Positions 1 through 10,281 of a stretch of 33,924 bases of DNA are shown piece by piece. The notes beneath the pieces are model-generated. The model was given only the letters and a program-made list of their open reading frames with translations. It had not been told where the DNA came from and did no database searches. Each line of letters begins with the position of its first letter. The first letter of the stretch is position 1. A program made the position numbers and the translations under genes. This DNA comes from a virus (taxonomy: Duplodnaviria; Caudoviricetes), in IMG/VR virus record IMGVR_UViG_3300022178_000674, positions 1-33,924 of that record; one strand, written 5' to 3'.

Positions 1-1
1 A

Positions 2-24
2 TCCCATATAATAGAGAGTGTCAA
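2..24 (-). promoter_or_regulatory. Partial sigma70-type promoter pointing out of the window (-35 TTGACA at 24-19; -10 would lie beyond base 1)
   Basis: Perfect TTGACA on the minus strand with an A-tract upstream. The 17-nt spacer contains the TCCCATA motif (2-8) also seen in other promoters here. Confidence 0.5.
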
Positions 25-51
25 CCCCTAAGATAAATTTTTTTATCCAGG

Positions 52-450
52 CGGGATGCCGGGCTGAACACCGGGCGGAAGCCACCGGGCTGCCGGGGGT
101 TTTACGAACAATTGTTCGGGTTAGCTCACCGGGCACAGTTCCGCCGGGCGGGAGGAGATGCTGCCGGGGAAGATCCGGGGAGCAGGTAATGAATTACCGG
201 GGGTGTCCCGATCCCAGCGCCCCGATCCCGAACAATTGTTCCCGATCCCCGATCCCGAAGACCCCGATCTTCAAAAGGAGGAGCTGCTGCTCCGAGTTCG
301 AGTTGCACACCCAGCAGCCCGATGGTATAATATCCCGAACAATTTTTCGGCTTAACCCCGATCCCGATGCTGGTGATGACAAAGCCCGATCCCGACCCCC
401 GACACATCCCGAACATTTTCCCGCTGGGGAACGCCCGACCGCCCCCTCTA
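52..450. repeat. GC-rich non-coding repeat region (CCGGG repeats, then CCCGAT repeats, with CCGAACA motifs)
   Basis: About 9 CCGGG copies at 59-201, about 9 CCCGAT copies at 207-391, and a perfect palindrome CGAACAATTGTTCG at 105-118. GC content is far above the rest of the window. Confidence 0.8.
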
Positions 451-460
451 GGCAATCCAG

Positions 461-991
461 CTATTCCGCTGGGTTCTCGCTATCTGCTGCTACTGGGATT
501 TGTTCGGCTTCTATGGGATTTTCTGCTGGTGTAACGTCAATCATACGATTTTTAGCACGATCCATAAATTCTTCCAGTTGTTCTACGATTTGGTCACGGG
601 TTAGGCTATCTATGTTTTCGTGTGTTACATGGCTACGAGCGACCATTAATCCCGTTACCTTGAGCCTGAGTTCTTCTGCTTTAATTGCTGCTGAAAAGTT
701 TCCTGCCTGCCATGCTTCATCTCTGAGCAGTTGCATATCCCGAACAGATTTAGTCACAGAGACACCGTACTTGCTTTCTAGCTCCTGTCTCATTTCTTCG
801 AGGCGTTCTTTTACCGTGGGATTATTAAGAAGCTGCACAGCTCTGACGTTGGCGTTCGAATACCCTGCTTCTCGTGCTGCTGCGGTTTGTGTCATATCTC
901 CGTGAAGATAGTTTTTGAGAAACTGTTGCTGTTTTGGATTGAGCCTTCTGTTCCCGTGTATCTTATCTTCTTTTATTCCTACCTTCGGCAT
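461..991 (-). CDS. terS: Terminase small subunit (N-terminal HTH), 176 aa
   Basis: LNPKQQQFLKNYL..TQTAAAREAGYS..AVQLLNNPTVKERLEE..AAIKAEELRLKVTGL is the typical TerS pattern. ATG at 991 has GGAG upstream. Confidence 0.8.
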   Translation of the reverse strand: MPKVGIKEDKIHGNRRLNPKQQQFLKNYLHGDMTQTAAAREAGYSNANVRAVQLLNNPTVKERLEEMRQELESKYGVSVTKSVRDMQLLRDEAWQAGNFSAAIKAEELRLKVTGLMVARSHVTHENIDSLTRDQIVEQLEEFMDRAKNRMIDVTPAENPIEAEQIPVAADSENPAE

Positions 992-1105
992 ACCAGCTCC
1001 TACCCGAACAATTTTACGACTTATGACCCGCAGCCATTCTACTAAAAACGCTACGATGGTCAAGTGCTATAGTTGTCATAATTTCCCAGAACATCAGGAA
1101 GCGGC

Positions 1106-1318
1106 TGACGCTCCATTACGTCAAGGGGGGATGATGTATATCCCCCCCTATAAGGGGGGTGACGCAGTTGACGTAAATTAACCCATTGATTTTATTGATT
1201 TATTTACGTCAACTCGACTTTCTGACGTAGTTGACGCGATTGGTCTAAGTCATTGATTTTATTGAATAAGTTACGGCAACGTCAACCGCGTCAACTTTGA
1301 CGTAGAAAATGTTGACGT
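1106..1318. promoter_or_regulatory. Iteron-like element with two IHF consensus sites (putative replication origin or packaging-initiation site)
   Basis: 11 TGACG/CGTCA copies; WATCAANNNNTTR matches on the minus strand at 1179-1191 and 1246-1258; 15-bp direct repeat CATTGATTTTATTGA; G6/C7/G6 hairpin tracts at 1125-1159. Confidence 0.6.
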
Positions 1319-1349
1319 AAAATAAAGATAAAATAATTTATTTTTTCTC

Positions 1350-1378
1350 TTGACATATGGAAAAACTTCATATACTAT
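1350..1378 (+). promoter_or_regulatory. Early sigma70-type promoter P1
   Basis: TTGACA-N17-TACTAT with an AT-rich upstream region, followed by SD GAGGAG and ATG at 1407. Confidence 0.85.
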
Positions 1379-1406
1379 AGTGATAGTATTTTAGAGGAGT
1401 AAACAA

Positions 1407-1694
1407 ATGCAAGTAAAGTTAGAAAAAAGCACAGCGCATACAGTTTATTATACAGCTAGGAATGGTAAAACATTATTTCATTTAATGGCGTATGATGCAG
1501 AAGGCAGAGAGTATTCTCATTATTATAATTTTCATGATCGTGATCGTGCAGACGTTTTAGCTAAGAAAGTTAATGATCTTGGTTATATTAATCATGATCA
1601 TTGGGGTTGTAGAGTTCCTTATGGATCTAATGCTTGGCTTTCTGACGGTATGGAAGATCGTTTAATTGAAGATGAAAAAAATGGTTATTTATAG
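1407..1694 (+). CDS. Hypothetical early protein, 95 aa
   Basis: ORF with a strong SD (GAGGAG) directly after the promoter. Confidence 0.8.
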   Translation: MQVKLEKSTAHTVYYTARNGKTLFHLMAYDAEGREYSHYYNFHDRDRADVLAKKVNDLGYINHDHWGCRVPYGSNAWLSDGMEDRLIEDEKNGYL

Positions 1695-1703
1695 GAGGTA
1701 ATA

Positions 1704-1970
1704 ATGGTTATTAAATTAAATTCTTTCAGCAACAAAGATTGCACTTTAGAGGACGCTCAGACTTGCGTTAATCAACTTGCCGATGTGGTAAATGTTATTC
1801 TGGAAGCGGCTAAAAAAATGTCTGACGCAGAACAAAATGATGCGGTTTGCAAAGAAGTTTTCGAGAACACATATTGGAAGCTATACAATAGATTAAGTTA
1901 TCTAGAAACTGACAAGCACAGGCATCCGCACAACGAACAACTAGAATATGTAATGAATAGGAATGGGTAA
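1704..1970 (+). CDS. Hypothetical early protein, 88 aa
   Basis: SD AGGAGGT and operon spacing. Confidence 0.8.
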   Translation: MVIKLNSFSNKDCTLEDAQTCVNQLADVVNVILEAAKKMSDAEQNDAVCKEVFENTYWKLYNRLSYLETDKHRHPHNEQLEYVMNRNG

Positions 1971-1975
1971 TAAAA

Positions 1976-2386
1976 ATGAAAAACGATACTGATATGTTTG
2001 GCACTTGGATTTTAAACTTTTACTTTAAGGAGTTCATGAAGCACATGAAGAGTGATCCTAAGTATACTGAGGAGTTGAAAGCTGTGGCTGATGCTCACAC
2101 GATTTACGCAGAGGGTGATCTTGCTTTAGAGGAGTACGTCAAGAAAGAGTATTTAAAATACATGACCAATACTCTTGATGTTACTGAGGAGAAGGTTTTG
2201 GACATCATTAAGAAATGTCTTAAAGATATGCCGCAACCAGATTGGAACCCAAAGTACGATTATTTTCTTGATTACTTTTCTACTATTACAAACGAAGTTT
2301 GTTCTGAGTTGATTGACATTCATTTAAATGAAAACCTAAAAAAGTGGGTTGCTAGTTTAGAGGCTAAACACGCGACTATTAATTAA
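1976..2386 (+). CDS. Hypothetical helical protein, 136 aa
   Basis: ORF tightly packed after 1970 on the same strand. Confidence 0.75.
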   Translation: MKNDTDMFGTWILNFYFKEFMKHMKSDPKYTEELKAVADAHTIYAEGDLALEEYVKKEYLKYMTNTLDVTEEKVLDIIKKCLKDMPQPDWNPKYDYFLDYFSTITNEVCSELIDIHLNENLKKWVASLEAKHATIN

Positions 2387-2389
2387 TAA

Positions 2390-2500
2390 GCATAGTAAGC
2401 CATGAGTGCTGAGATCGCCAAAAGTGTTATCATTAAGAGTCTCAAACCGTGGCAGTGCAAGCGGTTTTAATATTGGCGTAATTCCTTGGCTGTGATTGCA
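2390..2500 (+). ncRNA. Candidate structured (pseudoknotted) RNA in a 3' UTR
   Basis: Nested helices AGCCA/TGGCT, CGCCAA/TTGGCG and AACCGT/GCGGTT, plus a crossing helix TGAGAT/GTCTCA. No credible ORF. Lies just before a terminator. Confidence 0.45.
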
Positions 2501-2504
2501 TATT

Positions 2505-2538
2505 GAGGGGGATTTGTTTCCCCCTCTTTTATTTTTTA
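2505..2538 (+). terminator. Intrinsic terminator
   Basis: GAGGGGGA-tttgtt-TCCCCCTC followed by a T-tract. Confidence 0.85.
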
Positions 2539-2539
2539 C

Positions 2540-2568
2540 TTGACAAACTTTCCCATAAATGATAAGAT
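2540..2568 (+). promoter_or_regulatory. Early sigma70-type promoter P2
   Basis: TTGACA-N17-TAAGAT with TGn extension; spacer contains TCCCATA (2551-2557). Confidence 0.8.
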
Positions 2569-2597
2569 AATTTATCTAGTAAAAAAGGAAACAATAA

Positions 2598-3020
2598 ATG
2601 TATTATTTAGCATATGGAATGAACACTAACAGGGAGGCGATGTCGCATCGTTGCCCCAAGGCCAAACCAATGGGTGGGTTTTACTTACCTAATTACCGTT
2701 TGATCTTTCGTGGCGTGGCTGACTTTCGTGCTGATGCTGATGCTATCTTGCCAGTTGTATTGTGGGAAATCACAGAGGACTGTCTTGGTGCGTTGGATAT
2801 GTTGGAAGGCTATCCAGATTTTTATGATCGCAGGAAGATCAATAAAGAGTGGATCATTTACGACATGAATGGCAACAAGAACTATTTGCATGTACCGTCT
2901 GGTGGTTACTACAACATGATCGAAGAGGGTTATAAATACTTCGGCCTTGATGATTATTACCTACGTTCTGCAAAGCGTGACGCTGATCTTGTTGATGTAG
3001 GAGTTACGGCAAATGGATGA
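2598..3020 (+). CDS. Gamma-glutamylcyclotransferase (GGCT/AIG2-like) family protein
   Basis: YYLAYGMNTN...RCP.A...L.NYRLIF.GVAD...VLWEIT...ALDMLEGYP..Y.R is the GGCT-like pattern. Confidence 0.85.
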   Translation: MYYLAYGMNTNREAMSHRCPKAKPMGGFYLPNYRLIFRGVADFRADADAILPVVLWEITEDCLGALDMLEGYPDFYDRRKINKEWIIYDMNGNKNYLHVPSGGYYNMIEEGYKYFGLDDYYLRSAKRDADLVDVGVTANG

Positions 3021-3147
3021 AGATGAATTTATTGATTTGTTAAAGGAGTTCGTAAAGGACAAGCCTGTTGAGTTTTATCAACACGCTGACTTAATGGATG
3101 ATGGTCAAATTTGGATTAGCTTTGAATTGGAGAGTAAAGATGGATAA
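3013..3147 (+). CDS. Small acidic hypothetical protein, 44 aa (MDEDEFIDLLKEFVKDKP...), not in the ORF track
   Basis: SD AGGAG upstream; overlaps both neighbours as in a coupled operon. Confidence 0.65.
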   Translation: MDEDEFIDLLKEFVKDKPVEFYQHADLMDDGQIWISFELESKDG

Positions 3148-3307
3148 ACTTATTGATGAGGTTTTGGATCAAATTAAAAAAGATGTTAAAAGTGGAGATA
3201 TGACCGCAATTAAGGAATTAATTAAAAAACTTATTATCAATTCCCCTACACCGAGGTCTAGAAAATTTTCACAAGAACAAATGAAATCATTTTTATCGGA
3301 GGTATAA
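3140..3307 (+). CDS. Hypothetical protein, 55 aa (MDKLIDEVLDQIKKD...)
   Basis: SD GGAG before ATG at 3140. Confidence 0.7.
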   Translation: MDKLIDEVLDQIKKDVKSGDMTAIKELIKKLIINSPTPRSRKFSQEQMKSFLSEV

Positions 3308-3308
3308 A

Positions 3309-3431
3309 ATGAATAAACTTATTCGGCTTTTGGAGCAGATGGATGCTGACTTTGAAGATCGTTGGATTGCTGTAATTGCTATCTTAATGGTTATTGTTTG
3401 GATTTTAGGAGTTCACTTCGAATGGTTTTAG
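3309..3431 (+). CDS. Small single-TM membrane protein, 40 aa, not in the ORF track
   Basis: SD GGAGGT; MNKLIRLLEQMDADFEDRWIAVIAILMVIVWILGVHFEWF contains one hydrophobic segment. Confidence 0.7.
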   Translation: MNKLIRLLEQMDADFEDRWIAVIAILMVIVWILGVHFEWF

Positions 3432-3456
3432 ATCCTGACATAACCCGAATAACTTG

Positions 3457-3487
3457 ACCCTCGCATTCGTGCGGGGGTTTTTTATTT
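3457..3487 (+). terminator. Intrinsic terminator (UUCG loop)
   Basis: ACCCTCGCA-TTCG-TGCGGGGGT followed by a T-tract. Confidence 0.85.
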
Positions 3488-3619
3488 CCTACTGCTGTGT
3501 TGTAAGTTTCAGTTGTATTTTATAAGCCGAACAATTCATCGGGTTATTACTTACTGCTGTGTTATGTTTACCAGTGGTATAACCTACAGCAATATTTTGT
3601 GTGCTAGTGGTTTTTTTAC

Positions 3620-3649
3620 TTGACATCCCATATGTTCCCATGTTATAAT
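3620..3649 (+). promoter_or_regulatory. Sigma70-type promoter P3 driving a non-coding transcript
   Basis: TTGACA-N18-TATAAT with TGn extension; spacer carries TCCCATA and TCCCATG in tandem. Confidence 0.8.
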
Positions 3650-3655
3650 TTAAAT

Positions 3656-3747
3656 ATAGTAAGTTAATCGCTTGTTACTTACTACCTCAAAATACTAGAC
3701 TATACCCTCGATGCTTTTATTTCTGTTTTTGCATCGGGGGTTTTTTT
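3656..3747 (+). ncRNA. Candidate ~90-nt small regulatory RNA
   Basis: Bounded by a near-consensus promoter and a terminator with no credible ORF. It has a 5' hairpin (TAGTAAGT/ACTTACTA) and an exposed linker starting with anti-SD CCTC. Confidence 0.7.
3704..3747 (+). terminator. Intrinsic terminator of the sRNA
   Basis: CCCTCGATGC/GCATCGGGGG stem followed by T7. Confidence 0.85.
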
Positions 3748-3769
3748 ATAAAAAAATTTATATTTCCTC

Positions 3770-3798
3770 TTGACCTTTTAGATAAAATACTTTATACT
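3770..3798 (+). promoter_or_regulatory. Early sigma70-type promoter P4
   Basis: TTGACC-N17-TATACT (a second TATAAT at 3800-3805), then SD AAGGAGG before ATG at 3830. Confidence 0.8.
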
Positions 3799-3829
3799 TT
3801 ATAATATATCTAGTATAAGGAGGATTATC

Positions 3830-4267
3830 ATGGGATTAGATATGTATCTACGCGGTGAAAAGTTCGTTAGTAAATACGATCATTCGCAGCAAGCACCAGA
3901 AGGTGGTTCATTAGAGGTAAAGCGACCTGTTATTGATGGCTTTGAGGTTTCTGAGTACATTCTTGACATGGGTTACTGGTGCAAGTTTGCACCGTTGCAC
4001 AAGTATATTGTGAAGGTGTTCGCAGGTGATGTTGATGATTGTCAACCTATTCATTTAACTAATTTGGATTGTAATCGTATTGCTCAAGCTTTGCGTGATG
4101 GTGGCTTACCTGACAATGAAGATTGTAACGGCTGTTTCTTCGGACATCCTGAGTGGTGGGATGAAGACCGATTGAATGGTGAAGAACACGCAAAGGTTTT
4201 TGACAAAGCCGCTGAGTGGGTGGAATCCAATTCTTGGAACACTGTAACCTATCAGGCGAGTTGGTAA
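3830..4267 (+). CDS. Conserved phage hypothetical protein ('MGLDMYL...YQASW' type), 145 aa
   Basis: Strong SD; the N- and C-terminal motifs match a widespread phage family of unknown function. Confidence 0.85.
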   Translation: MGLDMYLRGEKFVSKYDHSQQAPEGGSLEVKRPVIDGFEVSEYILDMGYWCKFAPLHKYIVKVFAGDVDDCQPIHLTNLDCNRIAQALRDGGLPDNEDCNGCFFGHPEWWDEDRLNGEEHAKVFDKAAEWVESNSWNTVTYQASW

Positions 4268-4268
4268 T

Positions 4269-4433
4269 ATGAGATATGAAGTGCGAGTAGTGCTATCTGA
4301 AACGGTTGATGCTGACAGCCCAAAAGAAGCGCAACAGAAGTTTATGGATAACTTCGAGTATGCTGACGTTAAACATGGAACGTGGCACGTTGAGCCTGAC
4401 GATGTTGAATCAATGGAGGAACCATATGCCTAA
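4269..4433 (+). CDS. Small protein, 54 aa (MRYEVRVVLSETVDADSPKEAQQKF...), not in the ORF track
   Basis: Fills the gap between neighbours; shares the V-x-A-D-S-x-x-E-A motif with the next gene. Confidence 0.7.
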   Translation: MRYEVRVVLSETVDADSPKEAQQKFMDNFEYADVKHGTWHVEPDDVESMEEPYA

Positions 4434-4611
4434 GTTTAAAGTAACTGCCACAATGGATGTGGGATATACCGCTATTATTGAAGCCGATAGCCAAGATGAA
4501 GCGTGGGAGATTGCAAAGGGTGACTGTGAAGCAGATTGGGAGCAAACTGATAACGGTCACGATTGGACATTGGAAAACATTAGGGAGTTTAAAGATGTGG
4601 ATTTGCAATAA
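4426..4611 (+). CDS. Small protein, 61 aa (MPKFKVTATM...IEADSQDEAWEIA), DpnD/PcfM-like pattern
   Basis: SD GGAGG before ATG at 4426. Confidence 0.75.
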   Translation: MPKFKVTATMDVGYTAIIEADSQDEAWEIAKGDCEADWEQTDNGHDWTLENIREFKDVDLQ

Positions 4612-4759
4612 GTGTAACAAAGAGTGGGGGGTGGATGATTTTGCCCCCGACCTTTGCGAGTGTGGTGGAGAGGTCAAGTTCATTGAGCCTCAAGCCATGA
4701 TTGAGATCAACCAAGTTCTGGACGAAGCGTTTCAGAAAGTATTTGGGGAGAAATGGTAA
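4595..4759 (+). CDS. Small zinc-ribbon protein, 54 aa
   Basis: MWICNKC...CECGG Cys pairs; SD GGGAG. Confidence 0.7.
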   Translation: MWICNKCNKEWGVDDFAPDLCECGGEVKFIEPQAMIEINQVLDEAFQKVFGEKW

Positions 4760-5037
4760 TGAAAGTTGCACCTAAAACCTTAAATAAATTCGCTTGGAGT
4801 ATCTCTGGTCTTACTGAAGTAATTGGTCAATCTTTTGAAACGTCCAGTGATGAAGGTAGAATTTTAAGTTGGGCAGATGAAGATGGCTATTGGCTTACTT
4901 TAATTTGCGATGATGACGGTAAAGTTCACGCGATGTTTTACGATAGTATGTGTGAAAAAATGTATGTGGCTATTGGTTACTGCCGTTATCACAACATTAA
5001 CTTTGAATTAAATTGGGAGGGTAACAATGAGCAATAA
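4759..5037 (+). CDS. Hypothetical protein, about 92 aa
   Basis: TAATG overlap with the upstream gene. Confidence 0.75.
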   Translation: MKVAPKTLNKFAWSISGLTEVIGQSFETSSDEGRILSWADEDGYWLTLICDDDGKVHAMFYDSMCEKMYVAIGYCRYHNINFELNWEGNNEQ

Positions 5038-5914
5038 ATTCGTTGAGATCGTTACTGATGTAATGGACAATTTCAGAAGTACAATAGAGAGTCCCGAAGA
5101 TTTAAACTTCGGGGTTCTTCAAAACTACCGTTATGCCTTAGAGGACATGAAGGAAGCGGATATGTACTTTATTTCCGAAGACTTCAAAGAAGCTTTGGCA
5201 GCTTATCATAATGAGTTGGTTGAGGAAGAAGAGAATAGCAGGGAGGTTGTATTCTCTGAAGATTGCAGGCTACCGTCAAAGCTTTGCTTTATCTCTTTAG
5301 ACACATTCGACACAAAGGATTTGGACACTGGAGAAGTTGTCAGGGCATTTGGCAGCGGTCATATTGATGGCTTTCTTTGCCGACAGTCTGAGGATGGTTC
5401 AGTTGCTATTCGTTTGGTAGCCCGAAATTCAACTCCTACTCATATTGGCAGCTACGAATTAAAGCGTGGTGGGATTAGGTTCCCGACAGAGCTGCACGAA
5501 AGATTAGAGAACGATGAAAGCTTTCATGCGATGTATCTTGAAATGATTACTACAATTTCTGGTGCGTTTTCTTTGATCAATCAGCCCCGATTTGTGGACG
5601 TTTTGAAGTCGGGTAGTAGGCAGCAGCGCAAAAGAGCGCAGAAGCAACATGGCGTTGACGTAGAGCAATGGCATGAAATCAGTTGGAACATCAATGAGCC
5701 TATTGAGGGTGAAGTTGATGAACGTGGCAGATCTTTCCATATGCCACTGCACTACACCAGAGGCCACTGGCGCAAGGCAAAGCCCCATTGGGATGACGTT
5801 GTGTACCGAGAGGATGGCTTACCATACATCTGGATTGATGGTTTCTGGTCTGGGCATCCTGCGTATGGAATTAAAAAGGGCTATCATGCCCCAAAGCTAG
5901 GAAAGGCAGCATAA
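5027..5914 (+). CDS. Phage protein with C-terminal H-x-x-R-G-H-W-R motif, 295 aa
   Basis: SD GGGAGG; motif PLHYTRGHWR...WIDGFWSGHP. Confidence 0.85.
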   Translation: MSNKFVEIVTDVMDNFRSTIESPEDLNFGVLQNYRYALEDMKEADMYFISEDFKEALAAYHNELVEEEENSREVVFSEDCRLPSKLCFISLDTFDTKDLDTGEVVRAFGSGHIDGFLCRQSEDGSVAIRLVARNSTPTHIGSYELKRGGIRFPTELHERLENDESFHAMYLEMITTISGAFSLINQPRFVDVLKSGSRQQRKRAQKQHGVDVEQWHEISWNINEPIEGEVDERGRSFHMPLHYTRGHWRKAKPHWDDVVYREDGLPYIWIDGFWSGHPAYGIKKGYHAPKLGKAA

Positions 5915-6262
5915 ATGGCTATTGAAGACGATACTATGTGTATGCACTACACACTCGAAAGGCTTAGTGACATCAAGACTGAGACTGATTTGAATAAGTT
6001 TAAGGACGAGATTAAGCACAATCTTGGTGTCAATGAGCAATGGCGCAGGGATAACCCTGCGTACCTTGATCTATTAGCTCAAGATGACTTTGATGTTCTG
6101 AGGGCTGTTAGAACGACTAAGGACAAATACATTCGTAGAGCCTTAGAGAAGTCAAAGAACGTGAGTTCTGCTTCTAAATTATTAGGGTTGAAAAATTATC
6201 AAACCCTGCAAAACTGGATGAGAGAGTTAGGTATTGAAGATGATAATAACATTCGAAAATAA
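5915..6262 (+). CDS. Fis-type HTH DNA-binding protein
   Basis: YIRRALEKSKNVSSASKLLGLKNYQTLQNWMRELGI resembles the Fis/HTH_8 helix-turn-helix. Confidence 0.75.
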   Translation: MAIEDDTMCMHYTLERLSDIKTETDLNKFKDEIKHNLGVNEQWRRDNPAYLDLLAQDDFDVLRAVRTTKDKYIRRALEKSKNVSSASKLLGLKNYQTLQNWMRELGIEDDNNIRK

Positions 6263-6473
6263 GAAAGACAGGCCGAGCTTAAAAAAAGCTCAAGAGCTTG
6301 TCGGTGGTTTAGTCGAAATGGTTCACTTGCCACATAGACCAGAATTGCAAGTTCTTGTTAACGAAGAGGGGCTTTTAAAAGATTTGCCCCTTAATGTGGC
6401 GGCATCAAAGCTATGTATGCAGCCTATCGTTGGGGACGTTGTGGTTTTAAAAGGAGAAGCCCAATGGGACTAA
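6240..6473 (+). CDS. DUF3846-like protein
   Basis: L..AQELVGGLVEMV...VNEEGLLKDLPLN..AS...IVGDVVV. Confidence 0.75.
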   Translation: MIITFENKKDRPSLKKAQELVGGLVEMVHLPHRPELQVLVNEEGLLKDLPLNVAASKLCMQPIVGDVVVLKGEAQWD

Positions 6474-6697
6474 CAGATGATGAAGATTTTCACACGGTTC
6501 ATGTGTACCCAAAGCCTGATCACTATCCTGAGAAGCGAGAGTTCTTTGTTGAGATAGAGGGCGTTGTTAGAAAGACTTATCCGATTAAAGCTGAGAGTTC
6601 TGCTAAAGCCAGTCAAATGGCTAAGAGCGAGTTTATTATTGAGTTCGGTGGAGATAAGGACAAGATTTTGATTAACGATGTTTGGAAAAATAAATGA
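6464..6697 (+). CDS. Hypothetical protein, 77 aa
   Basis: SD AAGGAG before ATG at 6464; IKAESSAKA motif. Confidence 0.75.
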   Translation: MGLTDDEDFHTVHVYPKPDHYPEKREFFVEIEGVVRKTYPIKAESSAKASQMAKSEFIIEFGGDKDKILINDVWKNK

Positions 6698-6924
6698 TTG
6701 AATACTTTACAGCGTTGGTTCTTTCTTACACATTGCATAACCATGAGATCGACACGATTGTTTGGTTCGAGAGTGAACAGCATTGCATGAAGGCCATGAG
6801 CAGCCGAACGTTTGATCATATGTATGATCATATGTACGAATTATATGGCAACGATATTTCTATGTGGTGCTTGCCTTCAGATGTTCAATCAAAATTAGTT
6901 AGGCCGCGAGTTCGGCCTAATTAA
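6694..6924 (+). CDS. Small protein with hydrophobic N-terminus and F-x-S-x-x-x-C...C motif
   Basis: ATGA overlap with the upstream gene. Confidence 0.7.
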   Translation: MIEYFTALVLSYTLHNHEIDTIVWFESEQHCMKAMSSRTFDHMYDHMYELYGNDISMWCLPSDVQSKLVRPRVRPN

Positions 6925-6926
6925 TT
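6893..6926. terminator. Hairpin at the convergence of the early and replication operons (putative bidirectional terminator)
   Basis: 14-bp stem AATTAGTTAGGCCG/CGGCCTAATTAATT spanning the abutting stop codons. Confidence 0.55.
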
Positions 6927-7233
6927 ATTTTGGCAGGTTGTATTTTTTTATAATATTCCGAACAAAAGTTTCGGTTGAAAACATTACTTCTGCAATTTTT
7001 GGTATTTTCATATTTCTGTTTAGAAAACTATTAACCATCTTTGCATTTTTAGATAGATTTTTAATCTCATCTTGTTTTTCGGCAAAAGTTTTTATTTTTA
7101 CTTGCCCCCGAAGATTTGGTCTTTCTGATACGTCCAATCTATTTTGAACGCACCAGTTTTTGCTGTAGAGATCTTCATATCTTATTCTAGCCGCTTCGCT
7201 TTGGTATATCTTACCTTTTACTTGAGCCTTCAT
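6925..7233 (-). CDS. Basic protein with possible C-terminal HTH, 102 aa
   Basis: TAATG coupling to the primase gene and SD GGAGG; MKIPKIAEVMFSTETFVRNIIKKY. Confidence 0.7.
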   Translation of the reverse strand: MKAQVKGKIYQSEAARIRYEDLYSKNWCVQNRLDVSERPNLRGQVKIKTFAEKQDEIKNLSKNAKMVNSFLNRNMKIPKIAEVMFSTETFVRNIIKKYNLPK

Positions 7234-9425
7234 TACTCACCTCCATTTATGATTGCTTGTTCTGCTTGATATAGATCACCGCCCACAACACCGAGAAACC
7301 TTCTCGATCCTTGATTTGTTCTTTTATATTTACCAATTCTACCTGCTTGCAACAAAGCTGTAACAGCTTTTTTAATTGTAGTTCTGCCATCATCCCTCAA
7401 GTTTGCAGCGTTTATATTTGTATCTGGAGTTGAGGAAATAGTGTCAAAGATACTATCTTGTCCATCATGCGTCATATAAATACCCGCCTGCTCTTGCAGA
7501 TCTATAAAATTAAACACATATTCTAATCTATTCCGAACAATTTCAGAACCAATGATGCTTCTAATATCCTCACTTCGATCTTCTAGCAGTCCATTGTTCG
7601 GGTTACGAATAAAATGTCTGATGTCCCGATTAGCAACACCGTTTGATTTTACGACTGCGCCATCAAAGACAGTGTTTCTTGTGTAACTAATTCCAAGATT
7701 TGTGCATCTTGTTCTAGCTACGCCCTCATCCACTTGCCAAACAGCAAATGCTGATCTAACCCCATCGACAATAGCTGACGTACCCCGAATAAGATTACGA
7801 GCCTGTTCTGGCGTTGTAACAGGATCTTTATCCCTGATTTTAGCCATGTGGTGATTAACCATAACTGTAGCGCCTGTTTCTGTAGCCATTTGAGCTAACA
7901 ATCCCATAAAAGCAGCGCCTGCTGCAGGATCTGCATTTACATCTGCGTGTACAAATGATGCCATAGGATCAATAACAATCAATGCCAGATCCTCGATCTC
8001 CAACATTTCCTCGTAAATCTTTTCAAACTCTGGAGATGTGACGTAGGTATTGTCGGCCTTCATCATAATTGGAAACACTCCGCCTTCGTTTGGAAGGGGC
8101 ACAACCAGCAAATCATGTCTATAACCCGAACGAGTGTTCATCTTATCCAGTCTGCTGACCCTGCGATGAAGCTCATCTCTGTCATCTTCTGCTGATAATA
8201 TAATGGCTGACCCGTGATGAGAGACTAAACCCCCGAAAGAATTTTGCATAGCTTCGCCCGATGCCACCTTCATAGCCAGATCTAATGTCATCATACCTTT
8301 ACCGCTATCTCCAGCAGCCGCGAAAACACATGGAACTCCCAGCGGTATGGTATCTCCAATTAGAAATTTTTGTTCGGGTGCAGCGCCAACGAATTGATTT
8401 TCAATAAGAAGGTTTCTATTTTTGAGAGATAATGTTCTCTTTACTTTATGATTTGGTGCGTTGAGAAACTTCGATATATCAAAAGCTTCTTCAATCGCAT
8501 CAGCAGCGTCCCACTTTTTTGGCTTACCCTGTGGTGGCGTAAGCATCGTAACGGCTTTTGCCCCTGCGTTAACACCAAGCTCTTGCACTATTTTGGCTAA
8601 TTTCTGACCCGCTTCATCGTTATCAGGCCATATAATAAGCTCTTTGCCGTGCAATGGAGAGAAATCAAACTTATCTTTTGTGCGCTGAGATAGCATCCCT
8701 GCGCCCCCGATAGTACAAGTTGCTGTATGCCCAAGCTTAATTAGTTCATCAGCACACTTTTCGCCCTCTACCCATATGACCCGATCTGCTTCTTTGATCT
8801 GCGGTAGGTTATATAACGGCCTAGTTTCTGGTAAACGTGGGAACTGACGAAACTCTTTTTTTGCGCTGCCGTCATTATCCCGAACAATTTCACCAGTTTG
8901 ATCTCGTTCGATGTATTTCCTGACCGCAACGATAATTTCACCGTCTTCTGACAGGTATAAATACTCTCCATCGTATGGCGTTGAGTAGTCGATAACCCGC
9001 TTTTGTTTAACTTGTTCGGGTTGTTGTTCCTGCTGCGGCTGGGCAAGTGCAGGATTTATTGGATTCATGGGTGGTTCTGTCTTTTGTTTTTCCAACCATG
9101 TGCCAAAATGTTCGGCTACATCTTTAATTTTCCAACCATATGCCGCCATCAGGATTTTAGTTATGCCCCCGATGCCATCACCTGTGTTAAAGTCCATGCC
9201 TCGCATGAACTCTGAGCTAGATGGATCTATATTTATCTTGAGAGATTGACCCGCTTCGCCATTCAAAGACCCCAGATAAAACTCATTCCGAACAACTCTT
9301 CCGTTTGGATAAGCATTTTTTAAAGCCTCTATTTGCACATAAGACGGAACTTTATCCGTTATCTCTGCGACTAAATCTCTCGGTTCACTACCATATCTTG
9401 TGTTGCCAATTACCCTTAATGACAT
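7233..9425 (-). CDS. TOPRIM primase fused to an AAA_25/RepA-like helicase, 730 aa
   Basis: TOPRIM motifs IWVEGEKCAD and WPDNDEAG; P-loop AAGDSGKG; Walker B IVIDP; VNHHMAK and IRGTSAIVDGVR motifs. Confidence 0.9.
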   Translation of the reverse strand: MSLRVIGNTRYGSEPRDLVAEITDKVPSYVQIEALKNAYPNGRVVRNEFYLGSLNGEAGQSLKINIDPSSSEFMRGMDFNTGDGIGGITKILMAAYGWKIKDVAEHFGTWLEKQKTEPPMNPINPALAQPQQEQQPEQVKQKRVIDYSTPYDGEYLYLSEDGEIIVAVRKYIERDQTGEIVRDNDGSAKKEFRQFPRLPETRPLYNLPQIKEADRVIWVEGEKCADELIKLGHTATCTIGGAGMLSQRTKDKFDFSPLHGKELIIWPDNDEAGQKLAKIVQELGVNAGAKAVTMLTPPQGKPKKWDAADAIEEAFDISKFLNAPNHKVKRTLSLKNRNLLIENQFVGAAPEQKFLIGDTIPLGVPCVFAAAGDSGKGMMTLDLAMKVASGEAMQNSFGGLVSHHGSAIILSAEDDRDELHRRVSRLDKMNTRSGYRHDLLVVPLPNEGGVFPIMMKADNTYVTSPEFEKIYEEMLEIEDLALIVIDPMASFVHADVNADPAAGAAFMGLLAQMATETGATVMVNHHMAKIRDKDPVTTPEQARNLIRGTSAIVDGVRSAFAVWQVDEGVARTRCTNLGISYTRNTVFDGAVVKSNGVANRDIRHFIRNPNNGLLEDRSEDIRSIIGSEIVRNRLEYVFNFIDLQEQAGIYMTHDGQDSIFDTISSTPDTNINAANLRDDGRTTIKKAVTALLQAGRIGKYKRTNQGSRRFLGVVGGDLYQAEQAIINGGE

Positions 9426-9431
9426 TATATT
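9403..9431 (+). promoter_or_regulatory. Antisense promoter overlapping the primase start codon
   Basis: TTGCCA-N17-TATATT. Confidence 0.55.
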
Positions 9432-9445
9432 GTCCTTATATACAT
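9425..9445 (-). CDS. Putative 6-aa leader peptide MYIRTI coupled to the primase gene
   Basis: SD GAGGT 4 nt upstream of ATG at 9445; its TAA overlaps the primase ATG (TAATG). Confidence 0.45.
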   Translation of the reverse strand: MYIRTI

Positions 9446-9500
9446 ATTTACCTCTTCGGGGGGTAGATCATAGTCCTTTTGCCTATCCCCCGCTTTTTTT
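9438..9500 (+). ncRNA. Candidate ~60-nt antisense (counter-transcribed) RNA
   Basis: Lies between a plus-strand promoter and a plus-strand terminator (CGGGGGGTAG/CTATCCCCCG plus T-tract) inside a minus-strand operon. Confidence 0.55.
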
Positions 9501-10281
9501 AATTATTCCAACAAGTCTCCCTAAACTCGCAAAACTTACAAAGAAAAAAATCTTTTGTTTGAGCTATGCGAGGTAGAATGTCACCTGCTTTAGCCGCAGT
9601 CAAGATATTTACAGCCTTGTCACTTGACGTCTGTGCTAACTCCCGATTGAACGGCACTAATTCGTAGTAAATCTCAGATGTGTTCTTATTTACCACTGTA
9701 AAGAGCGCAGGGTGTTCTGTAAGATCCATGTAGGCTTGATATAAAGCGATCTGAGTAGCGTAAACAGGATTTGCCTTGGCTACCCCCATGCGCTGAAAGC
9801 CTTTCCACTTTTGATCGTTCGCTGACTTGTTTTCCCACAGACATGGATAGCCCATATCCACGTCACCGTCACAGACCACACCATCAATGTGCCCTTTAAT
9901 TTCATCATCGGCTATAGAAAAGCCAAACTGTTTTCCCATCTTATCCTCTGTTCTCAGATCGAACCCTGCATCGCGTAGCCACATTGCAGCGTAGTCTTCG
10001 ATGTAATGACCGAACTCGAATATCCTGAGTGTTCTTGCACTGAAGCCCGAACCCTCGTCTTGTGGATAGTTTAAGTACCGATACTGTATCTTTCGACTGC
10101 ATTCGTCACCTATGCTTGAAGCTCCCAAATATTTTCTTCGTTCGCGTTTGCTATTCTTTTCTACGATAGCTTTGTCTACTGCTTGCGATATTGCCTCTGC
10201 TTGTGGATCAGAAGGGGATACTTGTAGTAGGCCAAGCGCCTGTTGACTTATAGTATTTGTCTTCGAGTTTCCCAATTTCAA
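9499..10281 (-). CDS. Cas4-like / PD-(D/E)xK exonuclease with a four-Cys Fe-S cluster (start codon uncertain, TTG at 10281 or 10275)
   Basis: LGASSIGDECSRK, GHYIE, GHIDG, WENKS, QIALY and CKFCEFRETC motifs. Confidence 0.85.
   Translation of the reverse strand: MKLGNSKTNTISQQALGLLQVSPSDPQAEAISQAVDKAIVEKNSKRERRKYLGASSIGDECSRKIQYRYLNYPQDEGSGFSARTLRIFEFGHYIEDYAAMWLRDAGFDLRTEDKMGKQFGFSIADDEIKGHIDGVVCDGDVDMGYPCLWENKSANDQKWKGFQRMGVAKANPVYATQIALYQAYMDLTEHPALFTVVNKNTSEIYYELVPFNRELAQTSSDKAVNILTAAKAGDILPRIAQTKDFFLCKFCEFRETCWNN

Follow-up and report, generated by a model that had tools for sequence, protein, structure and literature searches.

In the window, by which we mean the whole stretch of 33,924 nucleotides of tailed-virus DNA analysed here, a short unit at 3620-3747 carries a promoter and a terminator around no credible open reading frame, and the question that it raises is what its RNA might do for the phage. 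The original prediction held that an exposed linker in this RNA is complementary to the leaders of the phage's own early transcripts, that it silences the first genes of three early operons together and that it may also act on host mRNAs. Our own reading of the sequence evidence, which we consider rather probable, is that the unit encodes a conserved phage sRNA, likely derived from a host RNA, which is predicted to pair with early messages of the phage itself and in this way would damp early translation.

Anatomy and conservation of the RNA unit

The sole 12/12 promoter match within positions 1-10000 is TTGACA-18-TATAAT at 3620..3649 (plus strand), a predicted promoter that reads TTG(C/A)..CCCATG(C/T)TA in relatives and that we take to be a sigma-70 promoter of Alphaproteobacteria. 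The sRNA gene, of about 92 nt (3656..3747, plus strand), is the top match of the covariance model in the window (70.3 bits). On the same strand it comprises an 8-bp covarying 5' hairpin (3657..3684), an open linker (3685..3703) made up of an anti-SD CCUCA, a variable spacer and an ACUAGAC arm, and an 11-bp intrinsic terminator with a U tail (3704..3747), the sequence and loop length of which differ across relatives. A further plus-strand terminator at 3456..3487 ends the P2 operon upstream and isolates the sRNA gene. The fold of 3656-3747 is more stable than that of any of 200 shuffles (z = -4.0), no ORF of at least 40 aa lies inside the sRNA, and a 50-aa minus-strand ORF (3489-3641) touches the promoter only. 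Promoter scan, fold and ORF list thus confirm the non-coding unit that had been proposed, folding reproduces its 8-bp hairpin, and the linker is open as claimed, over 3685-3703 rather than 3685-3699. A minus-strand promoter within the linker was ruled out, with a terminator upstream on that strand and no start codon after it.

No Rfam family matched anywhere in the window at its gathering score, and the sub-threshold matches in 1000-5000 were all of terminator type (E up to 5); a DNA search of 1200-4800 against 50,697 GenBank phage records returned no match. Three sequencing runs were listed, one of them of RNA; it holds 0.05 of the words and gave four contigs, which leave 3538-4242 uncovered and carry neither strand nor ends.

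Relatives were gathered by their GGCT protein and not by the seed, and among the best 80 of 138 such loci, many of them close kin, the sRNA was found in 74; the contigs of the other six end within 630 bases downstream of the GGCT gene. A sequence pattern detected 62 loci (one of them spurious), and the covariance model supplied the remainder of the 74. Across 49 distinct hairpins the mean stem is 6.7 bp, compared with 3.4 in slid controls. For the phage-only covariance model, copies with long inserts and near-duplicates were set aside, so that 36 of the 52 distinct copies were used, and in this alignment four of six hairpin pairs show two-sided changes, with 92.8% of cells paired as against 60.3% in the best slid control. 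CCUCA is invariant in all 36 copies and the preceding CUG nearly so; the CUA of the arm is likewise invariant, whereas the terminators differ freely. Judged by its sequence, 3620-3747 is a member of a real, uncatalogued family of phage sRNAs.

Two kinds of insertion were observed around the unit. Inserts of 60-80 bases, sharing GGACTGTT and GATTAGT, lie 5' of the linker in L013, L024 and L070 and 3' of the arm in L095; they are possibly a mobile structured RNA. In L002, L003, L005, L006 and L007, an insert of 500 bases separates the upstream terminator from the sRNA promoter; besides a short ORF it contains several repeats of (GC)(A/C)CTATA.

Predicted pairing with the early leaders

When the RNA was compared with all 51 start regions of the window, opening energies included, the three genes that had been predicted to rank at the top did so: gene 1407-1694 (95 aa, no family; P1 and leader at 1350..1409) came first at -15.9 kcal/mol, gene 3830-4267 (145 aa, no family; P4 and leader at 3770..3832) second at -10.7, and gene 2598-3020 (gamma-glutamyl cyclotransferase-like; P2 and leader at 2540..2600) third at -8.4, all on the plus strand and against a median of -3.6. 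The leader motifs are present as proposed at 1384, 3809 and 2575, and with the anti-SD part kept and the rest of the linker shuffled, 2000 times for each gene, the pairing surpassed the controls (p = 0.0015, 0.003 and 0.0035 for genes 1407, 3830 and 2598). The claimed P1 duplex of about 18 bp with two bulges is rejected because it needs bases upstream of the likely start; from the predicted +1 at 1385, 12 bp with one bulge are left. The P4 leader has two overlapping -10 boxes, the downstream one of which would leave 9 bp at -6.0.

The list of three targets was also too short. A leftward early promoter begins at the edge of the window (1..46, minus strand; an A/T tract and a -35 box from 24 to 19), with its -10 box and leader outside it. 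The IMG/VR contig L001, 99.9% identical to the window over 1001-5100, extends further left, and two leftward early leaders beyond the window start gave -17.4 and -14.8 there and were scored as stronger sites than those of P1, P2 and P4; the leader of the 1..46 promoter is the strongest predicted target.

Across the loci of relatives, T(C/T)TAG occurs in 99 of 122 distinct promoter-led leaders, in 98 of the 99 at 7-12 bases past the -10 box, that is, at or just after the predicted start, and 2-9 bases from the SD. Five leaders were modelled from +1, and in each of them the duplex spans GAGG. When the arm was shuffled, 23 of 25 linker types had z values between -2 and -8. CUAG is self-complementary, so that four of the six core pairs come free. 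In two near-complete relatives (G003 and G004) a promoter-led early gene ranks first, of 68 and 51 start regions respectively; the ranking of the class is weaker, its genes standing at 1, 3, 6, 22, 41, 43, 45, 48 and 64 of 68 in one and at 1, 11, 22, 37 and 40 of 51 in the other. By sequence prediction the unit shows the general features of a trans-acting sRNA, namely its own promoter and terminator, no ORF, a conserved single-stranded seed and complementary sites in unlinked mRNAs.

Two observations concern these start regions themselves. In both near-complete relatives CTAGC precedes the SD of the major capsid gene (G003:C1:45951 and G004:C1:40936, ranks 2 of 68 and 5 of 51), perhaps as the tail of the coding frame before it. 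Many early promoters, in the window and in relatives, have TCCCA/TGGGA boxes 10-11 bases apart flanking the -10 box; in the window these are seen at 3626-3640, in the spacer of the sRNA promoter, at 2551 and at 1-6. These boxes suggest a phage DNA-binding regulator.

If the phage RNA acts on its own messages, linkers should fit the leaders of their own lineage. Over seven clades of the GGCT tree, after 2 of 32 linker types without a GGCT gene in the locus had been dropped, own-clade pairing was favoured by -0.73 kcal/mol (exact p = 0.0004), a signal derived mostly from two of the seven clades. With leaders shuffled outside the core and the SD the own-clade advantage was -0.23 +/- 0.08, and none of 150 shuffles did as well; over 25 linker types with kinship ignored, the own-lineage advantage was -1.1 kcal/mol. 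Tuning is clearest in the clade of the window, in which an AAAAU spacer accompanies U-rich leaders such as that of P1. Against this, no strict compensatory (two-sided) change was found in the core arm among the relatives, lineages with ACUUGA, ACUCGA or ACUAUA arms mostly retain TCTAG leaders, which counts against our reading, and two ACUAUA linkers pair no better than shuffles. Thus the covariation that had been predicted between seed and leaders is found at the level of clades and is missing from the core arm. The idea of self-silencing as a whole draws support from ranking, shuffles and clade tuning and is weakened by the unchanging core arm and by a sister clade, described below, without this linker.

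In the mechanism that we propose, host sigma-70 polymerase would transcribe the sRNA and the early operons together on entry, and the linker would mask the ribosome-binding sites of several early messages by pairing with their initial 12-19 bases. Most early transcripts begin with UCUAGU, on which the ACUAGAC arm would nucleate before CCUC closes over GAGG. As the sRNA accumulates, 30S loading would be blocked, giving a delayed negative feedback by which the early phase ends. Hfq would probably aid the pairing; its use, like the sign and the timing of the effect, is modelled on known sRNAs.

A core Rhodobacteraceae RNA and its copies in phages

A GTDB scan with the phage pattern gave seven matches, five of which are one chromosomal RNA of Pseudooceanicola and Roseovarius. 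This host RNA was matched in 247 of 251 genomes of the family (six of them weakly) and is nearly invariant over its first 45 bases. Conversely, with the phage-only model the host RNA was the best match in 37 of 40 Rhodobacteraceae genomes (every genome that gave a match), two of the 40 having been chosen with the phage pattern, at 22-36 bits, compared with 18-23.6 bits for the unrelated best matches in 141 class-wide genomes, which were scanned under stricter filters. As the 37 matches are nearly identical, they count as about one event, with a rough E of 0.0001-0.16 per genome. The two RNAs share their fold and the register of the stem before CCUCA, and the loop GCUUGU of the window copy resembles the GCCUGU of the host RNA; of the 31 phage loops, 8 contain the motif GCYTGT, which lies outside the search pattern, against an average of 0.35 and a maximum of 3 in shuffles. 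Direct alignment to the host RNA is weak for the window copy (z = 1.7), with z = 7.4 for L012 and 5.9 for L058. We regard common descent of the phage and host RNAs, or deliberate mimicry, as very probable.

The host RNA corresponds to the uncharacterised 'sRNA 46' of Paracoccus denitrificans PD1222; a supplementary table of PMC5107571 lists it as expressed, detected by sequencing in P. denitrificans with peaks of 2088, 915 and 487, and as intergenic, and the main-text passages searched do not mention it. It shares with the phage RNA the layout of hairpin, linker and terminator, a similar loop and a linker that reads CCUCAAU(A/G)ACU. It differs in having an invariant 5' segment that phage copies lack, in its near-invariant first 45 bases, in varying at positions that are fixed in the phage arm, and in its locus, which in L148 is flanked by a yejA-like gene and bdhA, whereas the phage RNA lies in the early region. 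The phage RNA, lacking the yejA-like/bdhA site, is therefore likely a derivative of 'sRNA 46' and not a member of it. The phage would have kept the hairpin register and CCUCA of the host, dropped the 5' single-stranded segment and fixed two host-variable positions to match a leader motif that is perhaps older than the pairing.

Other identities for the host RNA were rejected. StsR of R. sphaeroides, a lead suggested by its length, was ruled out by primers and a Fig. S1 legend that differ (PMC8266604 supplement), and DenR/sRNA-29 of P. denitrificans (84 nt, antisense to Pden_0526) because the host RNA is the intergenic sRNA 46. SorX, MmgR/suhB and SorY remained below their Rfam gathering scores (26.6 vs 46.6, 24.6 vs 41 and 20.1 vs 111). 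None of the motifs searched is present in the R. pomeroyi sRNA supplements. In the literature searched, mostly outside subscription journals and bioRxiv supplements and including sections of PMC8266604, PMC8307010, PMC4615379, PMC6686037, PMC4809877, PMC5107571 and PMC12197685, neither the phage RNA nor any phage-borne version of 'sRNA 46' is described, and the microvirus element presented below is likewise absent.

Capture from Rhodobacteraceae has to be set against the capsid: that of G003 is 73% identical to the capsid of Pelagibacter phage HTVC023P and 58% to that of Roseobacter phage CRP-901 (PMC10149686), so that the closest capsid relative infects Pelagibacter. Three cultured structural relatives (CRP-901, HTVC023P and DSL-LC04) gave no match to the model and no such leaders beyond control level. 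A host could not be assigned via prophages; a capsid search of 401 genomes gave two matches, which at 45-46% identity are too distant.

Because the phage RNA resembles a core host sRNA, the suggestion that it might target host mRNAs becomes a serious rival. Its main job could be to act on the targets of the host RNA or on a partner such as Hfq, leader pairing being secondary, and this less probable but still substantial alternative is compatible with our own reading. The invariance of CCUCA in all 36 copies exceeds what most leaders, which offer GAGG or AAGG, would need; some phage copies equal host linkers over at least 14 bases, and the arm variants ACUUGA and ACUCGA sit at host-variable positions. 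On the other hand, phage copies lack the invariant 5' segment of the host, the spacer of the window copy departs from that of the host and fits its own P1 leader over 8 bases, and clade tuning to phage leaders would be unexpected if host targets ruled. Phage linkers also beat the best of three host linkers on these leaders by 1.5-6 kcal/mol. A linker-complementary pattern before a start codon matched in 28 of 81 genomes, often apparently in coding DNA, and we claim no host target.

The same alternative gains from three unrelated tailed-phage contigs in which the host RNA is present almost intact and in sense orientation: directly behind tRNA-Met and just before the large terminase gene (L230:2463-2545, minus strand), before the major head gene (L261) and under a promoter-like site (L296). 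Antisense copies were found in 13 microvirus-like genomes, GenBank MH572320 and 12 of 51 IMG/VR matches (L229:1501-1560, which is MH572320.1; L265-L269, L278, L294, L300, L301, L303, L306 and L307). Homology of the capsid or pilot protein marks five of these carriers as microviruses, a rolling-circle Rep another five, and size and layout only the other three. The antisense elements are conserved and near full-length, follow a stop codon on the coding strand, have different genes as neighbours, and pair with the host RNA in blocks that leave part of the CCU seed open; the 11 tested gave about -51 to -59 kcal/mol with the host RNA and -9 to -17 with the window RNA. They are candidate sponges of the host RNA, and the element is also a possible host marker. 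Among viral matches to the host linker 18-mer, 27 of 28 are not RNA genes by the model, and 36 of 51 matches to the host 5' 16-mer show no further likeness.

Remaining explanations and closest known systems

A leader-based search returned 59 loci, 21 of them with strong model matches and many of the others short. Among these, a sister clade of eight loci (GGCT 63-69%; L433, L440, L446, L455, L459, L466, L473 and L480) keeps the TCTAG leaders and has, after the GGCT gene, a stand-alone unit of promoter, hairpin and terminator in which a different linker replaces CCUCA..ACUAGA and pairing with the leaders is mostly weak. As the leader motif persists there without the arm, it may predate the arm. 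The terminator of the sister-clade units has a conserved 19-base loop with CUAG (8/8 units) and UAGG(U/A)UUC, the latter also occurring in the host RNA, and L446 holds three host-like pieces in order.

These loci bear on a second alternative, in which TCTAG itself serves the promoter or binds a protein, as a DNA operator at the start site or as the RNA site of a repressor, the sRNA is a decoy carrying CUAG, and the complementarity arises from a palindrome plus an ordinary anti-SD. The sister clade, with its leaders, its CUAG loops and its mostly weak pairing, speaks for this, conservation is stronger in the leader motif than in the arm, and the TGGGA/TCCCA boxes suggest a DNA-binding regulator. 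We nevertheless hold it to be improbable: the flanks of CUAG complement the leaders rather than copy them, the own-clade advantage survives the control in which core and SD are fixed, the distance from motif to -10 box varies over six positions, and variants without CUAG retain the rest of the RNA.

Pairing might also be real and differ in sign or source, the RNA shielding the 5' end from decay, or the leaders sensing the host RNA, which the phage copy would top up. Pairing takes place right at the 5' terminus of the message, and the host RNA of two Rhodobacteraceae genomes of low GC contains ACUAG, with linker-leader pairing of -6 to -10 kcal/mol; yet the duplex over GAGG in every modelled leader has the repressor geometry of c4 and sar (PMC12197685), which makes either version quite unlikely. 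That the unit is a terminator with an orphan promoter and no functional RNA is very unlikely, since promoter, hairpin covariation and linker are conserved while terminators and flanks differ.

Pairing of the phage RNA with its own early messages thus remains our preferred reading, and its closest parallels are other phage RNAs. Phages P1 and P7 encode c4, an antisense RNA with two-segment pairing. Like the phage RNA as predicted here, c4 is phage-encoded, trans-acting and directed at the ribosome-binding site of an own message (PMC12197685). It controls an antirepressor in temperate phages, whereas the phage RNA would act on several early operons, and integrase or resolvase (PF00589, PF00239) was found in none of five records, four of them at least 90% complete, which is still compatible with plasmid-type lysogeny; no antirepressor label was found among the 73 ORFs of G003 at 1e-5. 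The c4 Rfam model does not match the phage RNA, and c4 is not known to descend from a host sRNA. P22 sar (PMC12197685) is likewise small and phage-encoded and prevents initiation on a phage message; it has one target (ant), in contrast to partial pairing with a motif common to many unlinked leaders. The Hfq-type RNAs VpdS (VP882) and PreS (lambda) resemble the phage RNA as stand-alone phage RNAs of 50-90 nt that act in trans in lytic growth; the targets described for them there are mainly host RNAs, and no descent from a core host sRNA is reported (PMC12197685, in part). The prophage anti-sRNAs AsxR and AgvB (same source and scope) are the closest precedent for the microvirus antisense copies and not for the window RNA; they belong to E. 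coli prophages, whereas the microvirus elements are near full-length three-block antisense copies in small circular phages of ssDNA type.

The phage RNA would be an undescribed form of antisense control in phages, and it seems to be a host sRNA that was domesticated. The phage RNAs known to repress phage genes are chiefly those of temperate phages of enterobacteria, as a rule with a single target each; the prediction here is that one RNA acts on the leader common to an entire class of early genes, in phages without an integrase match. If true, an abundant marine podovirus group would possess an 'auxiliary regulatory RNA', which would be to RNA what auxiliary metabolic genes are to proteins. 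More tentatively, the core Rhodobacterales sRNA could be a battleground of infection, with sponges in microviruses, spare copies in tailed phages and capture by podoviruses as a master off-switch of early genes. Very different phages copying or complementing it would give a first handle on a near-universal Rhodobacterales RNA of no known function.

The setting of the unit is that of an uncultured tailed phage whose near-complete relatives measure 55-60 kb, and the window carries genes for a small terminase, the GGCT-like protein, primase/helicase, a Cas4-type exonuclease, Sak4, endolysin and tail. Three further features of the early region were noted. ORF 3309-3431 (plus strand), conserved, of 40 aa and hydrophobic in its C-terminal half, matches neither Pfam nor PHROG and is, from its sequence, a candidate small membrane protein or toxin-like peptide; a type I toxin-antitoxin pair with it as the main role of the sRNA was ruled out, its start region ranking 19 of 51. 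The P1 operon carries at its 3' end (2391-2530, plus strand) a second candidate structured RNA (z = -3.25) with no promoter seen and no Rfam match, conserved in six of nine aligned loci, two of which have hairpin insertions. Finally, CCGAA(C/T)AA occurs at 119, 228, 335, 507, 1004, 3445, 3527 and 13 more places in the window, both in the early region and close to the gene for the small terminase, and often forms part of a short palindrome; it is retained in relatives and is a possible operator or packaging signal.
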